DNA of 32,000 bases from Staphylothermus marinus F1 (GCF_000015945.1 NC_009033.1:930001-962000); one strand, 5' to 3'. Counted from the stretch's first letter, positions 2,919 through 32,000 are shown. Translations and numbers: made by a program. Notes: generated from the letters alone by a model not told the origin.

Positions 2919-3035
<117 letters not shown>

Positions 3036-5699: not shown

Positions 5700-6032
5700 G
5701 TGAGAAAAGCCTTGAACATAGAGGATCTAAGTAAGGAGAAAATAGAGGAAATAATAAATGATTATAAGAAAGGATTACCGGTAAAGGAAATAGTTAAGAA
5801 ACACAACATATACTTAGCTCTCCTCTATGAAATACTTAGAAAATACAACATACCATTAAGGAAAACAGAAAAACAAAAAATGCCAACACATAAGAGGAAA
5901 AAGAAATCAATCATAAAGAAAATAGTGAAAATGTATAGGAGAGGAACAAGCATATACAAGATAAGCAAACAACTAGGATTACCAACATCAACAGTATACT
6001 ATATATTAAAGAGACAAGGACTCAAAAAATAA
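5700..6032 (+). CDS. Small basic DNA-binding protein with two helix-turn-helix motifs
   Basis: The 110-aa ORF has a GTG start. It carries two HTH-like segments (LPVKEIVKKHNIYLALLYEILRK and TSIYKISKQLGLPTSTVYYILKRQG) joined by a lysine-rich linker. Confidence 0.55.
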   Translation: MRKALNIEDLSKEKIEEIINDYKKGLPVKEIVKKHNIYLALLYEILRKYNIPLRKTEKQKMPTHKRKKKSIIKKIVKMYRRGTSIYKISKQLGLPTSTVYYILKRQGLKK

Positions 6033-6040
6033 GAAAATAC

Positions 6041-6404
6041 AATAGAGGGGAGGGGCGGGCCATAACCCGCATTCTGTACAAGCTGCATTAGACTATGCGG
6101 CCCCCAACAGGGGGTTGCGCGGCCACCTCATCCCCCCTAATAATTAGGGGGGCCTTGCACCCCACGGGACCGGCCGTTTCAACGCATCCACCGCCGTCCT
6201 CAACGGGTTGCTGAGCCCCCGTTGCCGGGGGCTCCTCACCGCTTCATCGCCATCCGAGCGGTGGCCGTGTCGTTTCTGTGCCGGAGCCGCGGCTACTCGC
6301 CGCGCCCCGTTTCGGGGCCGTGGAGCCGCGGGGTGTGCGGAGTTTCCTCACCCCCTCTCCTAGAGTAGGGGGCGTGAGCAGCTGACCCGCCCCTCCCCTC
6401 TATT
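6041..6404 (-). ncRNA. rnpB: RNase P RNA (archaeal type A-like)
   Basis: This is a GC-rich block in AT-rich DNA. Read on the minus strand it gives GAGGGGAGGGGCGGGUC...GGUGAGGAAACUCCGCAC (CR-I, compare GAGGAAAGUCC), then ...GGCACAGAAAC..., then ...GGGGUGCAAGGCC..., then ...UGUACAGAAUGCGGGUUAUGGCCCGCCCCUCCCCUC (CR-V, compare ACAGAAnnCGGCUUA). The two ends pair to form a long P1 helix. Confidence 0.85.
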
Positions 6405-6494
6405 ATTCATTAATTTATATAGGACCCGTATAATGGTTTGGTTTATTGTTTCGTAGCTGGGGGGTTGATGGTTGTGTTTTTGTATGTATAGGGT

Positions 6495-6526
6495 GTGAAC
6501 TCCCCAGTTTCACGGTATGGTTTCGA
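6495..6526 (-). repeat. ORB-like element (long form)
   Basis: The plus strand reads gtgaactccccagtttcacggtatggtttcga. Its reverse complement is TCGAAACCATACCGTGAAACTGGGGAGTTCAC. Confidence 0.6.
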
Positions 6527-6558
6527 CTGAACCCACCATACATCTCAACGAATCTGGT

Positions 6559-6577
6559 CCATGGAGAGGGGGGTTTT
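6559..6577 (+). repeat. Short ORB-like element
   Basis: The sequence ccatggagaggggggtttt shares CCAT-GAGAGG...GGGGTT with the long elements but lacks the AACC spacer. Confidence 0.35.
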
Positions 6578-6605
6578 GGCGGGGTTGTTTTCTATGGAAA
6601 AATGA

Positions 6606-6634
6606 GAACTCCCCGGTTCCTCTCTATGGCTTCG
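6606..6634 (-). repeat. ORB-like element (long form)
   Basis: The plus strand reads gaactccccggttcctctctatggcttcg. Its reverse complement CGAAGCCATAGAGAGGAACCGGGGAGTTC is near-identical to the top-strand copy at 7004-7031. Confidence 0.6.
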
Positions 6635-6645
6635 CCTCGAAGAGG

Positions 6646-6669
6646 CCTTTATAAACCCCTTTATAAACC
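6646..6669. repeat. Perfect tandem 12-mer (CCTTTATAAACC x2), each unit containing the palindrome TTTATAAA
   Basis: I read this directly from the sequence: cctttataaacc cctttataaacc. Confidence 0.8.
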
Positions 6670-6673
6670 CCCT

Positions 6674-6693
6674 CTCCCCCCTGTTTCATATGG
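6674..6693 (-). repeat. ORB-like element abutting the left edge of the AT-rich core
   Basis: The plus strand reads ctcccccctgtttcatatgg. Its reverse complement is CCATATGAAACAGGGGGGAG. Confidence 0.55.
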
Positions 6694-6696
6694 AAC

Positions 6697-6855
6697 AACT
6701 AGAAAGCAGTATTATTAATTATTTATTATCGATAACATATACTTGTTTGTATAATGAGATCAATGTATTTAAACCATAAAAATAAAAAATCCTTTCATAA
6801 ATACAGATTTATTTTACTAATCAAATATTTTCTCAAATAAACCAATTATGCTTTC
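6697..6855. other. AT-rich core (candidate duplex unwinding element)
   Basis: By hand count there are 28 G/C in the 150 nt of 6701-6850, about 81% A+T. The stretch contains A/T tracts such as aaaataaaaaat and atttattttac. Confidence 0.6.
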
Positions 6856-6875
6856 TCCACAGGAAATTAAGGGGT
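6856..6875 (+). repeat. ORB element closest to the canonical archaeal consensus, abutting the right edge of the AT-rich core
   Basis: The sequence is TCCACAGGAAATTAAGGGGT. As I recall them, the Aeropyrum ORB is CTCCACAGGAAACGGAGGGGT and the Sulfolobus/Pyrococcus ORB is TCCAGTGGAAACGAAA...GGGGT. Confidence 0.6.
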
Positions 6876-6947
6876 GAGGGTTTCTATATTGAAACATGAT
6901 CTTATGAAGGGGGCTTGTCCGGTCTTCTATTGATATGTTCTATTTGG

Positions 6948-6975
6948 GAACCGGGGGGTTAGCCTCTATGGTTTC
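6948..6975. repeat. Composite of two ORB half-sites in divergent orientation
   Basis: The sequence gaaccggggggtt is the 3' half of a top-strand ORB. It is followed by gcctctatggtttcg, the 5' half in bottom-strand orientation. The second half forms an imperfect inverted repeat with 7004-7019. Confidence 0.5.
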
Positions 6976-7003
6976 GCCTCGACGAGCCCCTGGATTCTGG
7001 AGT

Positions 7004-7031
7004 CGAAACCATACAGAGGAACCGGGGGGTT
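7004..7031 (+). repeat. ORB-like element (long form)
   Basis: The sequence is CGAAACCATACAGAGGAACCGGGGGGTT. Confidence 0.6.
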
Positions 7032-7090
7032 TCCAATGTAAGATCCTTCCAACCCGTGATCCCCAAGCCCCCTTCCATTTAGTTCTTGCT

Positions 7091-7117
7091 TAACATAGGG
7101 GAAACCGGGGGGTTCAC
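7091..7117 (+). repeat. ORB-like element
   Basis: In taacataggggaaaccggggggttcac, the GAAACCGGGGGGTTCAC part mirrors the reverse complement of 6495-6511. Confidence 0.5.
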
Positions 7118-7207
7118 ATCCAGTCATTAACAACACACTAATTTTCAGCCCCCTCCAAGATATGTGTTCAATTAGGATTTTGTTTGATCGATTTGATCCG
7201 TAGGGGT

Positions 7208-7233
7208 GGAACTCCCCGGTTCTAAATGGTTTT
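7208..7233 (-). repeat. ORB-like element (outlier orientation)
   Basis: The plus strand reads ggaactccccggttctaaatggtttt. Its reverse complement is AAAACCATTTAGAACCGGGGAGTTCC. Confidence 0.45.
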
Positions 7234-7297
7234 ACTAGTCTGAGATTCCAAATCGTTAAATAAAATTTTAGTAGAGAAGGGAGGAGGTAAAAATTGT

Positions 7298-7786
7298 TTA
7301 TGAAATCGATAATACTAGTATGTATATTAGTGGTAATCCTATGATTAAGTATGCTATTGTTATTAGTAGTGTTGGGTTTAGTAGTGTCTCTTTGAGTCTA
7401 TCAATTCTCAGCATCAATGTTATTATGCTTAATACTGTACCTATACCTAGTAGTAGGTGTGCTGTTGCATATGTGTAGATGTTTTTGTAGAATTTCATGT
7501 CAACACTGTATTTAACAGTGGATCCTTTGATTTGATTAATTGTTATTGCATAGAATCTTCTACCAACAAATGTTGTATATTCATAATTTATTATTGTGTT
7601 TTTGAAAGAAGCTTTTCCCGCTGTAGGTGATAAATCTACGAGTTTCCATCCTGTTCCTGGTATTTCGTCTTCTAATTGAAGCGTTCCAGTCTGTATATTT
7701 GGTGGTAGTGCTAGATAGTATGATGCTATAGCTATTCCAGCTACTAGTATTGCTAATAATATTGTGTCCATTATTCCAAGCTTCAA
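7298..7786 (-). CDS. Hypothetical membrane protein
   Basis: The 162-aa ORF has an N-terminal TM helix (ILLAILVAGIAIASYYL), a central soluble segment and two C-terminal TM helices. Confidence 0.5.
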   Translation of the reverse strand: MKLGIMDTILLAILVAGIAIASYYLALPPNIQTGTLQLEDEIPGTGWKLVDLSPTAGKASFKNTIINYEYTTFVGRRFYAITINQIKGSTVKYSVDMKFYKNIYTYATAHLLLGIGTVLSIITLMLRIDRLKETLLNPTLLITIAYLIIGLPLIYILVLSIS

Positions 7787-7867: not shown

Positions 7868-8644
7868 CTATACAGGTGTTAAGCTGGGGTGTTTTTTGAG
7901 GATTTCTTTGAATCTCATAGAATCATCCAGCATGTATACATTGTTGAATAATACATATGCTGTTTCAAAAACTCTCTGCTCAAGTATTGTGGCGAGTTTC
8001 TCGAGGTCTTCAACACTATATTTATACCTATAATTTACTTCGCCCCCTCCTATACCATGCAACCTATAATACGCGACTCCATCAACTATGCTTACTGGTT
8101 CATACCTAAACGGGTCAACTACATGTATTATGCGGTGTTCACGGAGGATCTCCCCGTATTCGCTAATGTGTTTAGCCCATTCACCCCTCGGTTCCCATCC
8201 AATCAAATACTTGTTAGAAATAATTTCTCCAGTTTTATCGAAGAATTCTAATATCCATTTCTTTGATTCTTCATTGTAAGGCATTGATCCAGGTGTTTGT
8301 AAAACTATGATTTTAGCTTCTAGAACATCTGCTATCTCCAATGTCTTTATTAATGCTTCAAGGTTTTCTCTTGTTGGTTTAAGCCATCCATAGTTTTCAA
8401 TATTTCCAGCTGGTTTGTTTTTGAGTTTTCTCCATGTAGGGCTTCTATATGGATGAGTTATTACTTGCCATGCTTTAACTGTGAACTCGAATTCTCGGGG
8501 GGCTTCAGCTCTGATTTTCTCAGCCCATTCCCTGCTTGGTAAGTTATAGAATGTATTTTGTAGCTCTACTAATCTATGTATTTTATAGTATTTTCTCCTA
8601 GAAACAGGGAATCCACAGCATCCTATCTTCACTACTTTACCCAA
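7868..8644 (-). CDS. DUF72 (UPF0759) family protein
   Basis: The 258-aa ORF reads IGCCGFPVSRRKYYKIHRLVELQNTFYNLP...FEFTVKAW...YYRLHG, which matches the DUF72 TIM-barrel family pattern. Confidence 0.7.
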   Translation of the reverse strand: MGKVVKIGCCGFPVSRRKYYKIHRLVELQNTFYNLPSREWAEKIRAEAPREFEFTVKAWQVITHPYRSPTWRKLKNKPAGNIENYGWLKPTRENLEALIKTLEIADVLEAKIIVLQTPGSMPYNEESKKWILEFFDKTGEIISNKYLIGWEPRGEWAKHISEYGEILREHRIIHVVDPFRYEPVSIVDGVAYYRLHGIGGGEVNYRYKYSVEDLEKLATILEQRVFETAYVLFNNVYMLDDSMRFKEILKKHPSLTPV

Positions 8645-10637: not shown

Positions 10638-12284
10638 TTGATCATTTTCAAGTCTAAGCGTTGGCTTGAAAACGATGAGTTTAAAGAGATTCTACGTGTG
10701 GCTGATTATAATGGTTTTGAAAAGGGTGTTGGAGGAGTTTTTGTTTTTAATATTGATAAAGCGTTAAGGAATGGTTATGGTTTAGAAGATGTTTTAAAAT
10801 TAATAGAGGATTATGGTTTGGAAATTGATTCTTCTAGTTTAGAGGAGTTGAAGTCTCTTTATAAATCATTATCTATACTTGTTATGTGGAATAGTAGTAA
10901 TGGTTTTGTCGAATTACACGTTCCAACAAGTATTGATCGTAGGATTAAAAGTGTTTTGAGAGAGAGCGGTGCTCGTTTCAGAGGTTATCGTGGAGACCGT
11001 GTTGTTTATAAATTGATCCCTTATAAACTATGGGATCTAATAGGTGTTCTTAGAGGAAAAGGGTTTGAAATAATTGATCGTAGCGGATTGTTACGGGATA
11101 AAAAACTACCCTACAAGATCGAGCTTAGAAAGGTAGAGCTTAGACCTTATCAGAGAGAAGCATTGGAGGCTTGGATAAAGAATAATGGTAAAGGAATAGT
11201 TGCTCTCCCCACAGGTTCTGGTAAAACACTCATAGGTATAGCAGCTATTGCTCAAACGAGTCTTAGAACATTGATAATAACTTATACTAGAGAACAAATG
11301 TTTCAGTGGCGGGAACAAATATATAAGTATACAACTGCTGAGCCTGGCTTGGTAGGTCTTATTTATAGTAGGGAGAAAAGATTAGCTCCAATAACTATAA
11401 CTACTTATCAGAGCGGTTTCAGGAATATTAAGGAATTATCTCCTTTCTTCGACTTATTAATTGTTGATGAAGTTCATCATTTACCAGCTGATAAATTCAG
11501 ATACATAGCTATACATAGTATTTCAAGGTATCGAATGGGTTTATCGGCTACTCCTGTGCGTGAGGATGGACGGCATGAAGAACTTTTCCCCTTACTAGGT
11601 GGAATAATTTATTATCGATCAGCAGCTGAGCTGGCAAATATGGGTTATCTTGCTCGTTATCGTGTATTAACTATCAAGGTCGGTCTTAGAAAGGATGAGA
11701 AAAAATTATTTGAAGACTTAAGGAAAACATATAAAGTTTTAAGTGGTGGTAGAAGCTTCAACGAAGTCTTGGATTCTGCTCTTAAAGGAGATGAGAAAGC
11801 TAAGAATGCTTTGAGAATACATAATCAGATGAGAATGATTCTTGCTAAATCTAAGTCTAAAATAGATAAAGCAGTTGAGATCGCTGAGAAAGAGTATAGA
11901 AGGGGGTCAAAAATAATAATCTTTACCCAATACATTGAACAAGCCAAGGAGATCGCTGAGAAACTTAACGCTTATCTCTTAACAGGCGAGGTTCCAGTTG
12001 AGAAGAGGAAAAGAGTGCTTGAAGAATTCAAAAATAGGGATAATGGAATACTTGTTGTAACAACAGTTGGTGATGAAGGATTAGATATACCTGATGCAAA
12101 TGTGGGAATAATTGTTTCAGGAACTGGTTCGCGTAGACAGTTTATTCAGAGGCTTGGAAGAATTCTTAGACCTAAACCTAATGGTGTAGAGGCTAGGCTG
12201 TATGAAATTGTTCTCGAGAAGACTCCGGAAGAGTATCATGCTAGGAAACGTAAACGTGTTGATCTCGATGAATACTTATATTAG
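10638..12284 (+). CDS. xpb: XPB/Rad25-type SF2 DNA helicase (3'-5' translocase)
   Basis: The 548-aa ORF has an N-terminal DRD-like domain. It is followed by RPYQREAL, ALPTGSGKT (motif I), DEVHH (motif II), GLSATP (III), VTTVGDEGLDIP (V) and QRLGRILR (VI). Confidence 0.9.
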   Translation: MIIFKSKRWLENDEFKEILRVADYNGFEKGVGGVFVFNIDKALRNGYGLEDVLKLIEDYGLEIDSSSLEELKSLYKSLSILVMWNSSNGFVELHVPTSIDRRIKSVLRESGARFRGYRGDRVVYKLIPYKLWDLIGVLRGKGFEIIDRSGLLRDKKLPYKIELRKVELRPYQREALEAWIKNNGKGIVALPTGSGKTLIGIAAIAQTSLRTLIITYTREQMFQWREQIYKYTTAEPGLVGLIYSREKRLAPITITTYQSGFRNIKELSPFFDLLIVDEVHHLPADKFRYIAIHSISRYRMGLSATPVREDGRHEELFPLLGGIIYYRSAAELANMGYLARYRVLTIKVGLRKDEKKLFEDLRKTYKVLSGGRSFNEVLDSALKGDEKAKNALRIHNQMRMILAKSKSKIDKAVEIAEKEYRRGSKIIIFTQYIEQAKEIAEKLNAYLLTGEVPVEKRKRVLEEFKNRDNGILVVTTVGDEGLDIPDANVGIIVSGTGSRRQFIQRLGRILRPKPNGVEARLYEIVLEKTPEEYHARKRKRVDLDEYLY

Positions 12285-17200: not shown

Positions 17201-17927
17201 AAGCCATTGGGGCAATAAAGGGGCTCATGAGGCAATACGTCCGGTTCATCCTCTTGATAGGGAGGATCTCGAGAAAGCTGTTGTTGAGGGAATAATTACT
17301 CCTACAATCCCGTTGACTTGGCTACATTATCGCATATATGACTTAATCTTTAAGAGATTCATATCTAGTCAAATGAATCCATATAAAGCTCTTATCAGCG
17401 AATACGATGTTGTAATCAATAATGAGATAGTTAAAACACTTGTTTTACCTATTGAAGTAGTTGAGGAAGGATTTAACATTGTTATGAGACCGAAGACCTA
17501 TGGTTTCCTTAAAGGACATGATAGGATCGATATAAGCATTAAAGATATTAAGACGATGATTACTTCCACAAAGCCTCTCTGTTCAGAAGGAGGCTTAGTT
17601 AAGTTAATGAGGGAGCATGGATTAGGTAGGCCAAGTACTTATTCCAAGATCATAAGTAATATTGTGCGTCACGGATATGTTATTAGATCTAAGAAGAGAG
17701 GATTCTTAATACCTACTAAGACCGGTATAGAAGTATATGATTATTTATCTAATAGTTTTCCAGAGCTGGTATCTATTGATACAACTAGGGATATGGAGAT
17801 GAGGATCGATTTGATAGCTAAGGGAGAGATGAGAGCGGCTGATGAGATAAGTAGAGTTATAGATAGAATTAGGAGATATAAGTTGCCATTATCGATAAGG
17901 GAGGTTGTAGCAGAAGCTTCCGCCTAG
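14265..17927 (+). CDS. rgy: Reverse gyrase (helicase-like domain fused to type IA topoisomerase)
   Basis: The 1220-aa ORF has an N-terminal zinc finger (CPTCRGD...CGKC), then helicase motifs APTGMGKT and DDVD. A Toprim/topo IA module follows (VESPTKAKTIARFFG, ATDPDIEGEKIA, TYHRTSY with the catalytic Tyr) with an internal Zn ribbon CRVCG...CPRCG. Confidence 0.95.
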   Translation: MEKILDPIYKNLCPTCRGDVFANSLWDFGVCGKCSDEPGNSINAVTLYHAFKEDLEDFTHFFGKATGDLNPWGAQLTWAKRLLNGENTVIVAPTGMGKTTLLIVYSVYVAKNYNKKVLFLAPTRALAKQIYTRIIEAVKNVCGTCINVLFYDSGLSKKRREEVLLKIKNNEYDILVLTNHFLIRHYDLLDPNHIGLIVIDDVDSLMRSSKNILRLMKLLGFREELIEKAKKRNSIIWKLMLSKSLNKEEDYRKYIEELIEIEAEIDELLRNSSRKQVVIASATGRMKGIYAKVMRDLLRIDVSGITIYGRNITDTYLLISDHVRDTDKILGFIETLGPGALIFISPRHPLKKNLIELVGLLRRKLEEKGYRVAEANPSTIKKFVRGEYDFLIGSSSYYGVSVRGIDAPETIKYVLFIGTPLFTVELGSFLASPNMLIRVSLMLSEVLGDQRFRGVASTIRKLVFPLNNGEIKLLSMLLKNKITINDLGKDSRIVKVYEQILDFYNDIRKSLEELLSKKKVVDMNTITFYHDNNKFYALIPDVMTYIQASGRCSRLYLGKMTHGLSLVVEYDFLSNLVNGLSLKMNMFSRGFGFKDINDIDLYEEKKLLEKTRKELKGLVLTYRNILVIVESPTKAKTIARFFGKPVRRKIGSISVYEIPFVKDSEVIHLNIVATRGHLFDLTTDPSIPNHGVLIENNRISPVYTSIKRCRVCGYQFTYGDRCPRCGSTSFTDSYEVVNVLRKLAQEADEVYIATDPDIEGEKIAYDVYLTIKGFVDRVWRIELHEITLNEFLNALENKRNINLKLVEAEIYRRVLDRVIGFSLSQELWRKYSKNWLGAGRVQTPVLGWIIDHYNKYVSNKCRKIIYITEREGLKFSICIDLKDRDLYEKMRSVEYVTLVLKNSRIETFNPPPPYTTDELLYDASRIGIPSTLTMKIAQELFESGLITYHRTSYHYVSSAGISVASKYLENKNLSKHFHPSHWGNKGAHEAIRPVHPLDREDLEKAVVEGIITPTIPLTWLHYRIYDLIFKRFISSQMNPYKALISEYDVVINNEIVKTLVLPIEVVEEGFNIVMRPKTYGFLKGHDRIDISIKDIKTMITSTKPLCSEGGLVKLMREHGLGRPSTYSKIISNIVRHGYVIRSKKRGFLIPTKTGIEVYDYLSNSFPELVSIDTTRDMEMRIDLIAKGEMRAADEISRVIDRIRRYKLPLSIREVVAEASA

Positions 17928-18193
17928 TATTTTCTCCTGATCTTCAATGCAATATATGATCTCATTCTTCCCCTTACTCTCTCGCTTCCAATTTCAATAT
18001 CTACTAATTCAATACTGTTTCCAAGACGATCCTTTAATGCCCAATACACGTCTATGGCTCTACTTATAAAGTCTCCTCTCCCCTTTAATATAATATTATC
18101 TACTCCTTCTTGAAAACTAATTATTGCTTCAAATACATAGTCATCAATTGGTCTTTTACCAATATCAATTATTTTTGTTGTCGGCGAATACAA
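17924..18193 (-). CDS. Alba paralogue (Alba2/Sso10b2-like)
   Basis: The 89-aa ORF reads IDIGKRPIDDYVFEAIISFQEGVDNIILKGRGDFISRAIDVYWALKDRL...YIALKIRR. This is the Alba fold pattern but is divergent from the 13808-14104 copy. Confidence 0.85.
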   Translation of the reverse strand: MYSPTTKIIDIGKRPIDDYVFEAIISFQEGVDNIILKGRGDFISRAIDVYWALKDRLGNSIELVDIEIGSERVRGRMRSYIALKIRRKY

Positions 18194-18264
18194 TTCTTCT
18201 ACCTCCTCCCCCTCAGTATCTTAACTGTGTATTGTTAAGGTCTATACCTAATATTTAAGGTCTT

Positions 18265-18896
18265 CTACAATGGTGCAACTAATACGAGCAATATTATAGC
18301 TATATTGGATATTGCAACCTCACTATTAACTGAGCCACCTAAAAAAGCAATGAACAAATGCTTATATTGAAGGCTTGGTTGCAAGTATTAAGGTAACGAA
18401 TACTGATGCAGCAATAGCTTCATAGACTATTCGTTTATTTAAATACTATAATTGTTTTGGAGATTGTGAAAACCATGATTGTTTTAATTATTGAGTTCGC
18501 TTTGTAAACCCCTATAATATAATGGTTAATGGAACGTGGATGAAGGGCTCTGTATGATCTGTGTCGAGCCCCAATAGCTCCCTCAATGAAGAGAGTGAAA
18601 ACCCAACCCAAGAGGGGGAAGCCCGCGCATCATAAAGCACGGGCAATCACTGTTAATACAATACGTACATCAGAATAACTTGTATTGAATGATGTATATG
18701 ATAATATCATTCCATATAAGCTTAGTAAGCCGAAAGAACATATTCCCGGCAATATAGAATATTCTTTACCACTACTCTTTTTCTCAAAAAGTACGATACG
18801 AGTTCTTTCTCTTTTTAAACCTATTAGAGCGCCCATTAGAAATGAAATAATAATTTTGAAAACAATGTCTGTTGTGGGATCATTAAGGAACAACAT
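18265..18896 (-). pseudogene. Decayed MgtC/SapB-DUF4010-type membrane protein gene
   Basis: The N-terminal 88-aa ORF (KIIISFLMGALIGLKRER...) matches the MgtC N-terminus and ends at an in-frame TGA (18630-18632). The same frame then continues another 64 codons (CAGFPLLGWVFTLFIEGAIGA...). Further downstream, membrane-like fragments lie in other frames (RIVYEAIAASVFVTLILATKPSI*, then HLFIAFLGGSVNSEVAISNIAIILLVLVAPL*). Confidence 0.55.
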
Positions 18897-18919
18897 AGTT
18901 ACTGCTTATGATGTAATGT

Positions 18920-18977
18920 TCAGCTTGGGTTCGATGATTCATCATCCCATATGGTCTAGGGATAGGGCGTTCATCAC
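18920..18977 (-). ncRNA. C/D-box sRNA candidate (weaker, with a 15-nt D guide)
   Basis: On the minus strand the layout is GUGAUGA(C)-12 nt ACGCCCUAUCCC-UAGA(D')-CCAUAUGGG-AUGAUGA(C')-15 nt AUCAUCGAACCCAAG-CUGA(D). The C box contains the TGA stop of the 18974 gene. Confidence 0.4.
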
Positions 18978-19567
18978 TTGGTGTCCCGTAATATATTCTT
19001 AATAAATGCTTCTATATTATATCTAATTCGTTCAATATCTTCAGCATGTTCTTCTTCGATGCATTTTATGAATAATGTTTTAGGTAGTTGTAGAAGATCG
19101 CTATTTATGATCTTTTCTTTTTCTAAGAACCTTATAGTTTGATACCTTTTATCTAATCTACAATAAATATACGCTACAATATCGTCGTTGATCTCCATCA
19201 AACAAAATGTTTTTGATCCTAGGACTTCTCTTCTAATTATTTTATTCTTGTATACACTGCATAAGCACATATTGTTTTTTAAAGTAATATAGTAATCTAT
19301 ACAAATACTCGAGGTTTTCATAGATAAATCTCTAATTGTAGATTCTATCTTATTGAGTAATTCAGAAAGCAGTCTTATAGGCATACTTATCCGTGCTTCT
19401 AGCGAATATGGAGATGTGATCATGGTTTTATAGCCGTATTCTCTTGACAGAACCTTCTCTATCTTGGTTAGGGGAATTTGCCTAGGAGTTTCTACGAGTA
19501 ATCTAATTATTAACATAGGCTCGGATGGGGATAACTTCTTCACCGAATAAGCATCCGTCTCGGGCAT
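18974..19567 (-). CDS. Hypothetical protein
   Basis: The track ORF runs to 19627 with a GTG start, but that start lies inside the guide of a textbook C/D sRNA. The first ATG (MPETDAYSV..., 19567) is the more likely start, giving 197 aa. No family is recognised. Confidence 0.5.
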   Translation of the reverse strand: MPETDAYSVKKLSPSEPMLIIRLLVETPRQIPLTKIEKVLSREYGYKTMITSPYSLEARISMPIRLLSELLNKIESTIRDLSMKTSSICIDYYITLKNNMCLCSVYKNKIIRREVLGSKTFCLMEINDDIVAYIYCRLDKRYQTIRFLEKEKIINSDLLQLPKTLFIKCIEEEHAEDIERIRYNIEAFIKNILRDTK

Positions 19568-30276: not shown

Positions 30277-30687
30277 ATGGTGAGACATAATATGAATGCG
30301 ATATCACCACTAATAGCGGCAGCATTATTGTTAATAATAACTGTTGCAGGCGGCGTAATTATATATAACTATGTAATGAACACGTTGCAAGCACCCCAAC
30401 AATTTGCATCAATAACAGTATTATCTGCAAAAATGCTAGTAGATAATGGTCAAACAATACTCAATATAAAGGCAACCAATATTGGAACCACATCAGCAAA
30501 AATAACTGGAGTGAGGATCCTGCCGGACAATTTATCGGTTAATACCGATGTGACTATAGAACCAGGTGTTACTAAAAGCATAAACCTATACATAAACCAA
30601 ACATTAGACACAACCACAAACCACTATGTAATTATTGAATATGATAACGGAGAAACAGAACCTGTCATGATAAATATTATTAAGTAA
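30277..30687 (+). CDS. Archaeal type IV pilin-like protein (class III signal peptide)
   Basis: The N-terminus MNAISPLIAAALLLIITVAGG matches the archaeal pilin/flagellin N-terminal motif (xISPVIATVLLIAITV). The likely start is the ATG at 30292. The remainder is beta-rich. Confidence 0.7.
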   Translation: MVRHNMNAISPLIAAALLLIITVAGGVIIYNYVMNTLQAPQQFASITVLSAKMLVDNGQTILNIKATNIGTTSAKITGVRILPDNLSVNTDVTIEPGVTKSINLYINQTLDTTTNHYVIIEYDNGETEPVMINIIK

Positions 30688-30708
30688 CTATTTGAGGAAT
30701 GAGCAAAA

Positions 30709-32000
30709 ATGAGGATAAATAAATTTAATTCTTTTTTTAAATTTCTCAAACATCAATTCACCCGTAAAAGGTCTTTTGAAGTAAAAAAGCTAATTATTAA
30801 AGAAGCATTTCACGAAATAATAAAAGAATACATTGAGAAAACAGTAATCATCCCAGTTAAGCCTGTAAATATAGTTGAAGAATATGTTGTCGGAAACGTT
30901 GTAAGAATATATATTAATAGAACAGGTAAAAGCCTTCTACAATACATAGTTCACGAGCCAAGCTATGATAAAGACACTATATATGCTGTCTCCAAGCTGT
31001 ACATAGAAAACCCTAATTGTAAAAATAATATATGCATTCAGGAGACGCTCTCAAATATTAATGATAAAAAACTTCATAAAATATATTCCGAACAGCCGAT
31101 CCGAGTTAACTATTATTATTTCAAGATATCAAGTGGATATGGATCACTGTATCCACTAATAATTGATCCGTATATTGAGGAAATAGCTGTCAATGCATCT
31201 GATAAAATTGTATCGATAATAAATAGGAAATACTCATGGTATGGATGGATGAATACTAATATCTACATAGATGAAAAAGTAATTGATAGACTAGTCCTAA
31301 GTATTGCGCGTAAGATGGGTAAGCATTTATCAATAGCACAACCATTAGCAGAAGGCTTAACAAATGATGGTCTAAGAATTAGCTTAACCTATGGCCGGGA
31401 AATATCTAGGAAAGGTAGTAGCGTGGTTATTAGGAAAAAACCTAGCACTCCATGGACTATTACAAGACTAATAGATATGAAAATGTTATCATCATTGATA
31501 GCAGCATATGCATGGTTAGTTCTTGAGCTACGAGGCTCAATACTTATTGTTGGAGGCATGAGTACTGGGAAAACGACTCTTCTTCAAGGATTACTAACAC
31601 TTATACCGCCCACGAGAAGAGTTGTAACGATAGAGGATACACCTGAAATAACGGGATCGACTGGTTTATGGGATCCCTTGGTTGAGAGAATAGTTAGTAT
31701 TGGTGAAAGCATTAATGTTTCCATGTATGATTTATTAAAGTTTAGCTTGCGTAGAAGAGCAGATTATATAGTTGTTGGCGAGGTAAGGGGGAGGGAAGCG
31801 CGTCTCTTATTACAAGCTAGTAGGCTGGGTCACGGGGTTTTAGCAACTTTTCATGGTGAAGACGCAGAGACTGTTATTGAAAGACTTATTTCTCCACCAA
31901 TATCAATTCCGAAAAACATGTTATCTAGTATATGGAGCATTATTGTTTTAGAAAACATTAATGGTGTAAGAAGAGTTAGAAGTGTATATGAGATTACCAA
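30709..32000 (+). CDS. Type II/IV secretion-family ATPase (FlaI/PilB/VirB11-like pilus assembly ATPase), runs off the right window edge
   Basis: My own translation starts at ATG 30709: MRINKFNSFF...IDPYIEEIAVNASDKIV...ILIVGGMSTGKTTLLQ (Walker A)...ADYIVVGEVRGREA (Walker B/Asp box)...GHGVLATFHG (His box). The frame is open to position 32000. Confidence 0.9.
   Translation, partial: MRINKFNSFFKFLKHQFTRKRSFEVKKLIIKEAFHEIIKEYIEKTVIIPVKPVNIVEEYVVGNVVRIYINRTGKSLLQYIVHEPSYDKDTIYAVSKLYIENPNCKNNICIQETLSNINDKKLHKIYSEQPIRVNYYYFKISSGYGSLYPLIIDPYIEEIAVNASDKIVSIINRKYSWYGWMNTNIYIDEKVIDRLVLSIARKMGKHLSIAQPLAEGLTNDGLRISLTYGREISRKGSSVVIRKKPSTPWTITRLIDMKMLSSLIAAYAWLVLELRGSILIVGGMSTGKTTLLQGLLTLIPPTRRVVTIEDTPEITGSTGLWDPLVERIVSIGESINVSMYDLLKFSLRRRADYIVVGEVRGREARLLLQASRLGHGVLATFHGEDAETVIERLISPPISIPKNMLSSIWSIIVLENINGVRRVRSVYEIT

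Follow-up and report, generated by a model that had tools for sequence, protein, structure and literature searches.

A probable oriC1-type chromosomal replication origin beside rnpB in Staphylothermus marinus F1

The rnpB-linked spacer and its central module

We analysed a 32,000-nucleotide stretch of the genome of Staphylothermus marinus F1 (GCF_000015945.1 NC_009033.1:930001-962000), which is hereafter called the window and whose positions are counted from its first letter. In this window, a gene-free spacer of 903 bp (6395-7297) separates the 5' end of rnpB, which encodes the RNase P RNA, from the stop of a membrane-protein open reading frame (ORF; 7298-7786). rnpB is the conserved left-hand neighbour of the spacer, with its 5' end toward it and its transcription directed away. 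The spacer had been proposed, in an earlier inspection of the window (the original prediction), as a candidate replication origin. Judged by its motifs and their arrangement, it is very likely a chromosomal origin of replication of the kind represented by crenarchaeal oriC1, with inverted origin recognition boxes (ORBs) around an AT-rich duplex unwinding element (DUE). The central module and its neighbour comprise:

6051-6394, minus strand: rnpB (Rfam RF00373, 167.4 bits, full length)
6675-6698, minus strand: inner-left ORB, TTGTTCCATATGAAACAGGGGGGA (bottom strand), 12.7 bits on the ORB matrix, TCCA end beside the core and G-string distal
6699-6851, no strand: AT-rich core, the presumed DUE, 153 bp, 17-19% G+C in 100-bp windows
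6745-6756, plus strand: ucm motif GTTTGTATAATG in the AT-rich core, presumed site of the ucm-binding protein (UBP)
6852-6875, plus strand: inner-right ORB, TTTCTCCACAGGAAATTAAGGGGT, 22.6 bits on the ORB matrix, the top match in the whole window, TCCA end beside the core

The composition reported for the core in the original prediction was exact: 6701-6850 contains 28 G/C, and A+T makes up 80.5% of 6697-6855 (about 81% had been given), compared with a window average of 35% G+C.

ORBs were scored with a weight matrix that was trained on other loci only and that replaced a strict ORB regular expression, which misses many real sites. The inner-right ORB stands well above the second-best score in the window (22.6 versus 14.8 bits), and the experimentally defined ORB2 of Sulfolobus islandicus oriC1 reaches 17.3 bits on the same matrix. 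The inner-right ORB also resembles the Aeropyrum pernix ORB given in the original prediction. Scores of at least 12 bits occur at only 7 of the 63,954 window positions, six of the eight positions with at least 10 bits fall inside the spacer, and so do 8 of the 12 top-ranking matches. At least two ORBs (6852-6875 and 6675-6698) fit the consensus, in which a TCCA-N-GGAA dyad region is followed by the GGGGT G-string. They are inverted around the AT-rich DUE with their G-strings distal, a polarity identical to that of the S. islandicus ORB3/ORB2 probe, the inner-left ORB being oriented as ORB3. Both polarity and spacing agree with the ORB3-DUE-ORB2 probe sequence (PMC12141716).

The ucm motif is required for the activity of S. 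islandicus oriC1, and its mutation abolishes detectable firing (Dhanaraju et al. 2025, PMC12141716). The motif is bound by UBP, which has been reported only for Desulfurococcales and Sulfolobales, and it is also present in the other origins of Sulfolobus and in the two of A. pernix (PMC12141716). The crystallised ucm 12-mer is ATTATACAAAAG/CTTTTGTATAAT, and the supplement of the same study gives the ORB3-DUE-ORB2 probe (PMC12141716). The ucm of the window has eleven contiguous bases, TTTGTATAATG, in common with the corresponding ucm region of the footprinting probe for S. islandicus oriC1 in that supplement (PMC12141716). This 11-mer has one exact match in the window, inside the core; a ucm within the DUE is a trait of Sulfolobales and Desulfurococcales origins.

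Conservation of the ORB-ucm-ORB layout in related loci

Among homologues of Tsr3, the best 120 matches were almost all Desulfurococcaceae-like, and the four more distant loci (L118-L121) belong to other lineages; a scan of metagenome contigs with a Tsr3 alignment added 36 loci. The ORB-ucm-ORB layout adjoins rnpB in 33 of 36 related loci. Likewise, 33 of the 36 rnpB-bearing loci contain the ucm-derived 9-mer TTTGTATAA no more than 700 bp from the 5' end of rnpB. It has 38 matches in 24.7 kb near rnpB and 17 in the remaining 1.46 Mb, corresponding to densities of 1.54 and 0.012 per kb, respectively, or an enrichment of approximately 130-fold. The ucm 9-mer also represents the most widely common 8-mer set among the related origin spacers. 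These data show that ucm is the most conserved element of these origins; its orientation varies among loci, and it may be found on either strand.

The non-coding module is conserved at a syntenic position in related genomes. In the locus of a Staphylothermus metagenome-assembled genome (MAG), L003, the gene order is the same as in the window, and beside rnpB an AT core of 120 bp is enclosed by two canonical ORBs, TCTCCAAAGGAAATGAGGGGGT and TCTCCACAAGAAATATAGGGGT. Spacer conservation between the window and L003 is confined to motifs (three short high-scoring segment pairs), and rnpB is 84% identical. The 90-amino-acid ORF 6446-6718 within the spacer gave tblastn matches (E < 0.01) outside the window only as two repeat-sized pieces in the origin spacer of L003, both of which sit beyond the AT core as seen from rnpB. 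It is therefore not a conserved ORF, which bears out the earlier statements that this frame is built from the repeats and that no credible ORF lies between rnpB and 7298-7786.

In other Desulfurococcaceae, the DUF72 gene is located approximately 9 kb away, yet the ORB cluster and the dip in G+C content are still found at the rnpB 5' end; it is therefore the linkage to rnpB that is conserved. The best relatives of the DUF72 protein (7868-8644) among 185,579 species-representative genomes come from Staphylothermus, Thermogladius and Desulfurococcaceae MAGs, with identities of up to 65%. The four more distant loci contain an ORB(-)-ucm-ORB(+) unit whose ORBs are 116-143 bp apart, placed 2-3 kb from Tsr3-rnpB with other genes between:

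L118, 4196-4698: distant-lineage unit
L119, 2735-3656: distant-lineage unit
L120, 3893-4279: distant-lineage unit
L121, 3888-4265: distant-lineage unit

Wherever a ucm cluster was found in the related loci, the origin is thus no more than approximately 3 kb away from Tsr3-rnpB; this arrangement holds in many related Thermoprotei, and 3 of the 36 rnpB-bearing loci are without such a cluster. In L109, L112 and L113, rnpB is located approximately 3.5 kb from Tsr3 in the opposite orientation, and no ucm or ORB match occurs within 1 kb of its 5' end. In the literature consulted, no usable description of the rnpB-origin linkage or of a Desulfurococcus origin was found. Taken together, the ORB matrix, the ucm motif in the core and the layout conserved in dozens of loci strongly support the proposal of an origin with Orc1/Cdc6-type ORBs around a DUE.

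Outer repeats combine an ORB arm with an AAC-N6-GTT dyad

Outside the inner ORBs, the spacer contains a promoter-like element, a tandem repeat and a series of composite repeats:

6414-6421, minus strand: TATA-like box TTTATATA (top strand), read from the sequence, approximately 20-27 bp upstream of the rnpB 5' end
6442-6466, plus strand: degenerate ORB-like or G-string element TTTATTGTTTCGTAGCTGGGGGGTT, 13.2 bits on the ORB matrix, repeat family D2/D7
6489-6528, minus strand: composite repeat 1, dyad AACTCCCCAGTT (6498-6509) with the arm TCACGGTATGGTTTCGACT on its right (bottom-strand orientation) and TAGGGTGT on its left (top-strand G-string)
6598-6638, minus strand: composite repeat 2, dyad AACTCCCCGGTT (6607-6618) and arm CCTCTCTATGGCTTCGCCTC, 88% complementary to 7000-7031
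6646-6669, plus strand: perfect tandem of two copies of the 12-mer CCTTTATAAACC, directly abutting the G-string of the inner-left ORB
6947-6980, minus strand: composite repeat 3, dyad AACCGGGGGGTT (6949-6960) and arm CCTCTATGGTTTCGCCTC, right of the core with its arm oriented as the left-hand arms
7000-7031, plus strand: composite repeat 4, arm GAGTCGAAACCATACAGAGG and dyad AACCGGGGGGTT (7020-7031)
7090-7117, plus strand: composite repeat 5, degenerate, CATAGGGG and dyad AACCGGGGGGTT (7103-7114), 14.8 bits
7184-7233, plus strand: composite repeat 6, ORB-like arm ending in TAGGGGT (7184-7207), dyad AACTCCCCGGTT (7210-7221) and arm-like remnant CTAAATGGTTTTAC, 14.5 bits

The TATA-like box is presumed to be the rnpB promoter and would be the sole promoter that the spacer needs. 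Each unit of the tandem 12-mer contains a TATA-like TTTATAAA, and the tandem was not seen in the L003 spacer as read.

The original prediction had listed six repeats, three on the bottom strand left of the core and three on the top strand right of it, all of which were found at those positions and strands. Missing from that list were the copy at 6947-6980, the G-string and dyad copy at 7184-7221 and the degenerate element at 6442-6466. The claim that the arrays are inverted about the core holds cleanly for the innermost pair (6675-6698 minus, 6852-6875 plus), but not for the arrays as a whole, because the arm at 6947-6980 has the left-hand orientation. In the long repeats, the G-string forms the middle of a near-palindromic AAC-N6-GTT sequence (reverse complementation of AACCGGGGAGTT yields AACTCCCCGGTT), and its strand is therefore no reliable sign of repeat orientation. 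The long repeats are degenerate ORB arms fused to an AAC-N6-GTT dyad and not, as had been described, ORBs extended by CGAAACCATA and carrying an AACC spacer.

All six copies of the strict 12-mer AAC[CT]GGGG[GA]GTT in the 32 kb are located within 6498-7221, and five of the six window copies of CGAA[AG]C[CA]ATA are in the spacer. Six strict dyads are the most of any locus, the maximum elsewhere being four. The long repeat form had also been regarded as lineage-specific, yet the composite, in which GGAAC-N5-6-GTT immediately follows TCCAGTGGAA-N4-5-AGGGGT, is conserved far outside this lineage, with 48 instances across approximately 30 related origins. Between the window and L003, the segment 6890-6990 shows 84% mean column identity, and the block holding composite repeat 3 is near-identical.

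The distribution of the dyad was then related to ORB position, taking all ORB-matrix matches regardless of the sequence that follows them. The dyad accompanies 14 of the 69 ORBs located within 140 bp of ucm in the canonical polarity, a class that includes the innermost pair, and 46 of the 64 remaining ORBs; in 58-84% of the latter, GAAC starts two bases past the G-string. The density of a loose dyad pattern is 3.07 per kb in origin spacers and 0.063 per kb in the ±10-kb flanks of the relatives, the latter value being equal to the random-sequence estimate. Across approximately 30 related origins, the dyad is a mark of the outer ORBs, and most of those closest to the core are without it. In the window repeats, the ORB arm has decayed (GTCGAAACCATA.AGAGG) while the dyad is nearly perfect in six copies, which suggests that selection on these repeats acts on the dyad and not on the ORB. 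The ORB and dyad composite is possibly a new variant, and no description of an AAC-N6-GTT dyad at origins was found in the literature consulted. We tentatively suggest, from its fixed phase to the G-string of the outer ORBs, that the AAC-N5-7-GTT dyad could be the site of an undescribed second origin factor, which would probably be dimeric, or could represent a class of extended Orc1 footprint. If this is true, the dyad would separate 'outer' from 'inner' ORBs in Desulfurococcaceae-type origins.

Initiator gene and neighbouring proteins

No Orc1/Cdc6 (Cdc6/AAA-initiator) domain was detected in the scanned window ORFs of at least 80 amino acids, in both end fragments or in the gene table of an identical 15-kb contig (Logan assembly). 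An adjacent orc1/cdc6 gene, which is a typical but not universal trait of origins, is therefore lacking here, and the 12-kb gene tables of the related loci, including L118-L121, likewise contain no Cdc6 domain. According to a review (PMC5333045, citing Robinson and Bell 2007), neither cdc6 gene of A. pernix adjoins its origins. This exception means that an adjacent initiator gene does not define the family in this order. The original prediction was thus right that the window has no nearby initiator gene, but its view of this as unusual does not stand, since the A. pernix origins are described in that review as alike (PMC5333045) and the related loci have no Cdc6 domain either.

ORFs of 230, 217, 146, 143, 124 and 107 amino acids that have no assigned function gave no match to Pfam or NCBIfam models. 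An adjacent whiP gene (cdt1-like, winged-helix), which characterises WhiP-dependent origins such as Sulfolobus oriC3 and A. pernix oriC2, was likewise not detected with these libraries, although it is uncertain whether they contain a WhiP model. The proteins of 230, 217, 143, 124 and 107 amino acids had no significant sequence match in the PDB; this includes the conserved 107-, 124- and 143-amino-acid proteins, which lie near the origin and were considered as possible UBP. A 110-amino-acid protein with a double helix-turn-helix (HTH) is encoded on the plus strand at 5700-6032, between Tsr3 and rnpB, beside the origin with the most repeat copies. It weakly resembles Cbp1, a CRISPR repeat-binding protein (NCBIfam NF040595, E = 6e-11, with 42 bits where the cut-off is 140), and the HTH domains of transposases. 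A tblastn search with this protein gave no match in L003 or in the seven other related loci compared.

Rearrangements and surroundings of the origin

The usual gene order in related loci is Tsr3-rnpB-origin-alba-rgy-alba-...-XPB-...-DUF72-DUF2208 (for example, L002, L020, L022, L028 and L029). In the window and L003, a block of approximately 11 kb from alba (17924-18193) to DUF72 (7868-8644) is inverted. The breakpoints are located at 7234-7297, the right edge of the origin, and at approximately 18194-18974, and the extra membrane-protein gene (7298-7786) lies at the origin-edge breakpoint. No displaced ORB copies were found at the other breakpoint (18150-19020). The origin cassette is itself flipped relative to its flanks when window positions 6498-6990 are compared with L003 positions 11505-11962: the block of L003 nearest to rnpB corresponds to the right-hand block of the window (6906-6990), and ucm is oriented oppositely. 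Such cassette flips fit repeated recombination between inverted repeats.

The original prediction had pointed to the richness of the window in genes for DNA topology and repair. The clustering is real and reflects conserved synteny, but no functional tie to the origin was found. Among other features, a G/C-rich patch at 18530-18640, in an AT-rich and gene-poor stretch, could be a small RNA and has no Rfam match at the gathering threshold. A tRNA match at 2919-3032 (plus strand) is 114 nt long against a 71-position model, suggesting an intron-containing tRNA gene. The region 30277-32000 (plus strand) encodes a weakly UpsA-like pilin (136 amino acids) followed by a type II/IV secretion ATPase that runs past the window end, and looks like a pilus operon adjoining the topoisomerase VI genes.

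Comparison with known origins and a possible mode of action

Sulfolobus oriC1 consists of ORB3, a DUE with ucm, and ORB2, plus ORB1, and depends on Orc1-1 and UBP. The spacer shares with the oriC1 of Sulfolobus/Saccharolobus (S. islandicus REY15A and S. solfataricus P2) the inverted ORBs with TCCA ends toward an AT-rich core of approximately 110-150 bp, the ORB consensus and a ucm inside the core with the 11 contiguous bases in common. It differs in that orc1-1 abuts the origin in Sulfolobus, whereas the 32-kb window has no initiator gene. Furthermore, the two S. islandicus ORBs with readable flanks are not followed by AAC-N6-GTT, in contrast to the six dyad-bearing outer repeats of the window.

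The A. pernix oriC1 was reportedly characterised by Grainge et al. in 2006 and by Robinson and Bell in 2007, and a crystal structure of ORC1 on ORB4 is said to be available as 2V1U. It belongs to Desulfurococcales and, like the spacer, has several ORBs surrounding an AT-rich region, a ucm (PMC12141716) and, according to the review cited above, no adjacent cdc6 (PMC5333045). The nearest precedent for the ORB and dyad composite is S. solfataricus oriC2, where an ORB-type site is also joined to a second recognition sequence: an mORB for Orc1-1 overlaps a C3 site for Orc1-3, in addition to a C2 site for Orc1-2, and the mORB/C3 composite can take two proteins at once (PMC3089459). However, C3 sites are asymmetric and are bound by a monomer of an Orc1 paralogue, whereas the window element is a spaced dyad, which suggests a dimer; moreover, Orc1-3 is reported as restricted to Sulfolobales (PMC3607249). 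The Pyrococcus oriC resembles the spacer in having several ORB-class repeats of two kinds (ORB and mini-ORB) around an AT-rich region (PMC1904270), but is a euryarchaeal single origin that is linked to cdc6 and for which no ucm is reported.

By analogy with the Sulfolobus and Aeropyrum work, Orc1-1 (Cdc6-1), encoded elsewhere in the genome, would bind each ORB as a monomer, with its winged helix on the TCCA-N-GGAA part and its AAA+ initiator-specific motif on the G-string. The ATP form of Orc1-1 on the two inner ORBs would then recruit MCM to the 153-bp AT-rich core, and UBP on ucm would assist the egress of MCM from the origin. The outer composites might serve as sites for extra Orc1-1, for a second factor that recognises the AAC-N6-GTT dyad, or for both, and may set the strength or timing of the origin.

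Evaluation of the origin assignment and alternative explanations

Several points weigh against the assignment of the spacer as an active origin. Experimental evidence of initiation exists neither for this organism nor, as far as we found in the literature, for any member of the Desulfurococcaceae. With 12.7 bits, the inner-left ORB matches the matrix only moderately. The skew over the 32-kb window gives no usable signal, as it tracks gene orientation. The presumed orthology with the experimentally mapped A. pernix origin would rest on motif architecture and literature statements and not on an alignment. In addition, the genes on both sides are mostly directed toward the spacer and not away from it. 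Co-orientation of genes away from active origins is often seen; on the right side, the direction toward the spacer is due to the recent inversion.

The orientation of the flanking genes would also suit a cluster of Orc1-binding sites that forms a dormant, relic or rarely firing origin, or that serves mainly for Orc1-dependent transcription control of its neighbours, as would the degeneration of several ORB arms in the window. Both situations have precedents, in dormant origins of haloarchaea (PMC4595724) and in Orc1-2 as a transcription regulator in Sulfolobus (PMC9738581). Nevertheless, the joint conservation of the inner ORBs, the AT core and ucm across many lineages argues for selection on the full initiation module, and a relic origin would not retain an exact ucm, so that we consider this explanation unlikely. 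The proposal that the array is an upstream regulatory region of rnpB, with a dimeric transcription factor on the AAC-N6-GTT dyads, draws on the dyad symmetry typical of dimeric regulators and on the fact that many loci have a G-string and dyad copy at a distance of 67-127 bp from the 5' end of rnpB. Most dyads are, however, far from the rnpB promoter and phase-locked to ORBs, and in L118-L121 the ORB/dyad/ucm cluster keeps its layout 2-3 kb from rnpB with genes between, which renders such a role barely credible.

The G/C-rich blocks (6440-6696 and 6856-7235) could in principle be genes for stable structured RNAs, because G/C-rich islands are expected for RNA genes in an AT-rich hyperthermophile and the G+C content of these blocks is 47-48%, compared with 35% in the window; hairpins could arise from inverted repeats such as 6944-6980/7000-7036, and the top strand of the left block gave a folding z of -2.0. 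We rejected this candidate. An Rfam scan of the spacer at E up to 10 yielded only chance-level matches and no family, the other three strand and block combinations gave z = -1.6, -1.0 and -0.2, and the folding of both blocks on both strands is not significant against shuffled sequence. The G+C content of the blocks is far below the 70% of rnpB, the hairpins are merely pairs of inverted repeat copies, and conservation is confined to short motifs resembling protein sites, whose order and orientation differ between relatives. A structured RNA is thus highly improbable. An origin of the repeats from a mobile or dispersed element, such as a miniature inverted-repeat transposable element, that landed beside rnpB would account for the many copies in both orientations, for the inversions of the cassette and the flank and for the neighbouring weakly Cbp1-like or transposase-like HTH gene at 5700-6032. 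Yet no strict copy in the 32-kb window lies outside the spacer, the dyad is at chance density in the ±10-kb flanks of the relatives (0.063 versus 3.07 per kb in origin regions), and the motifs occupy the orthologous position in dozens of genomes; we therefore regard this explanation as extremely unlikely.

Conclusions

The spacer beside rnpB provides a sequence-level origin prediction for a Desulfurococcaceae lineage. The origin is very probably, for the most part, of an ordinary and well-known crenarchaeal kind, the extra conserved element on its outer boxes being the less ordinary part. ORB-ucm-ORB forms a simple three-part signature that picked one spacer in every related locus with a ucm match near rnpB, and it is usable for origin annotation in metagenome-assembled Thermoprotei genomes with unlinked initiator genes. 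The ORB and dyad composite offers a concrete target in the search for a possible additional origin factor and, together with the stable linkage to rnpB, is the part of this origin most worth attention.

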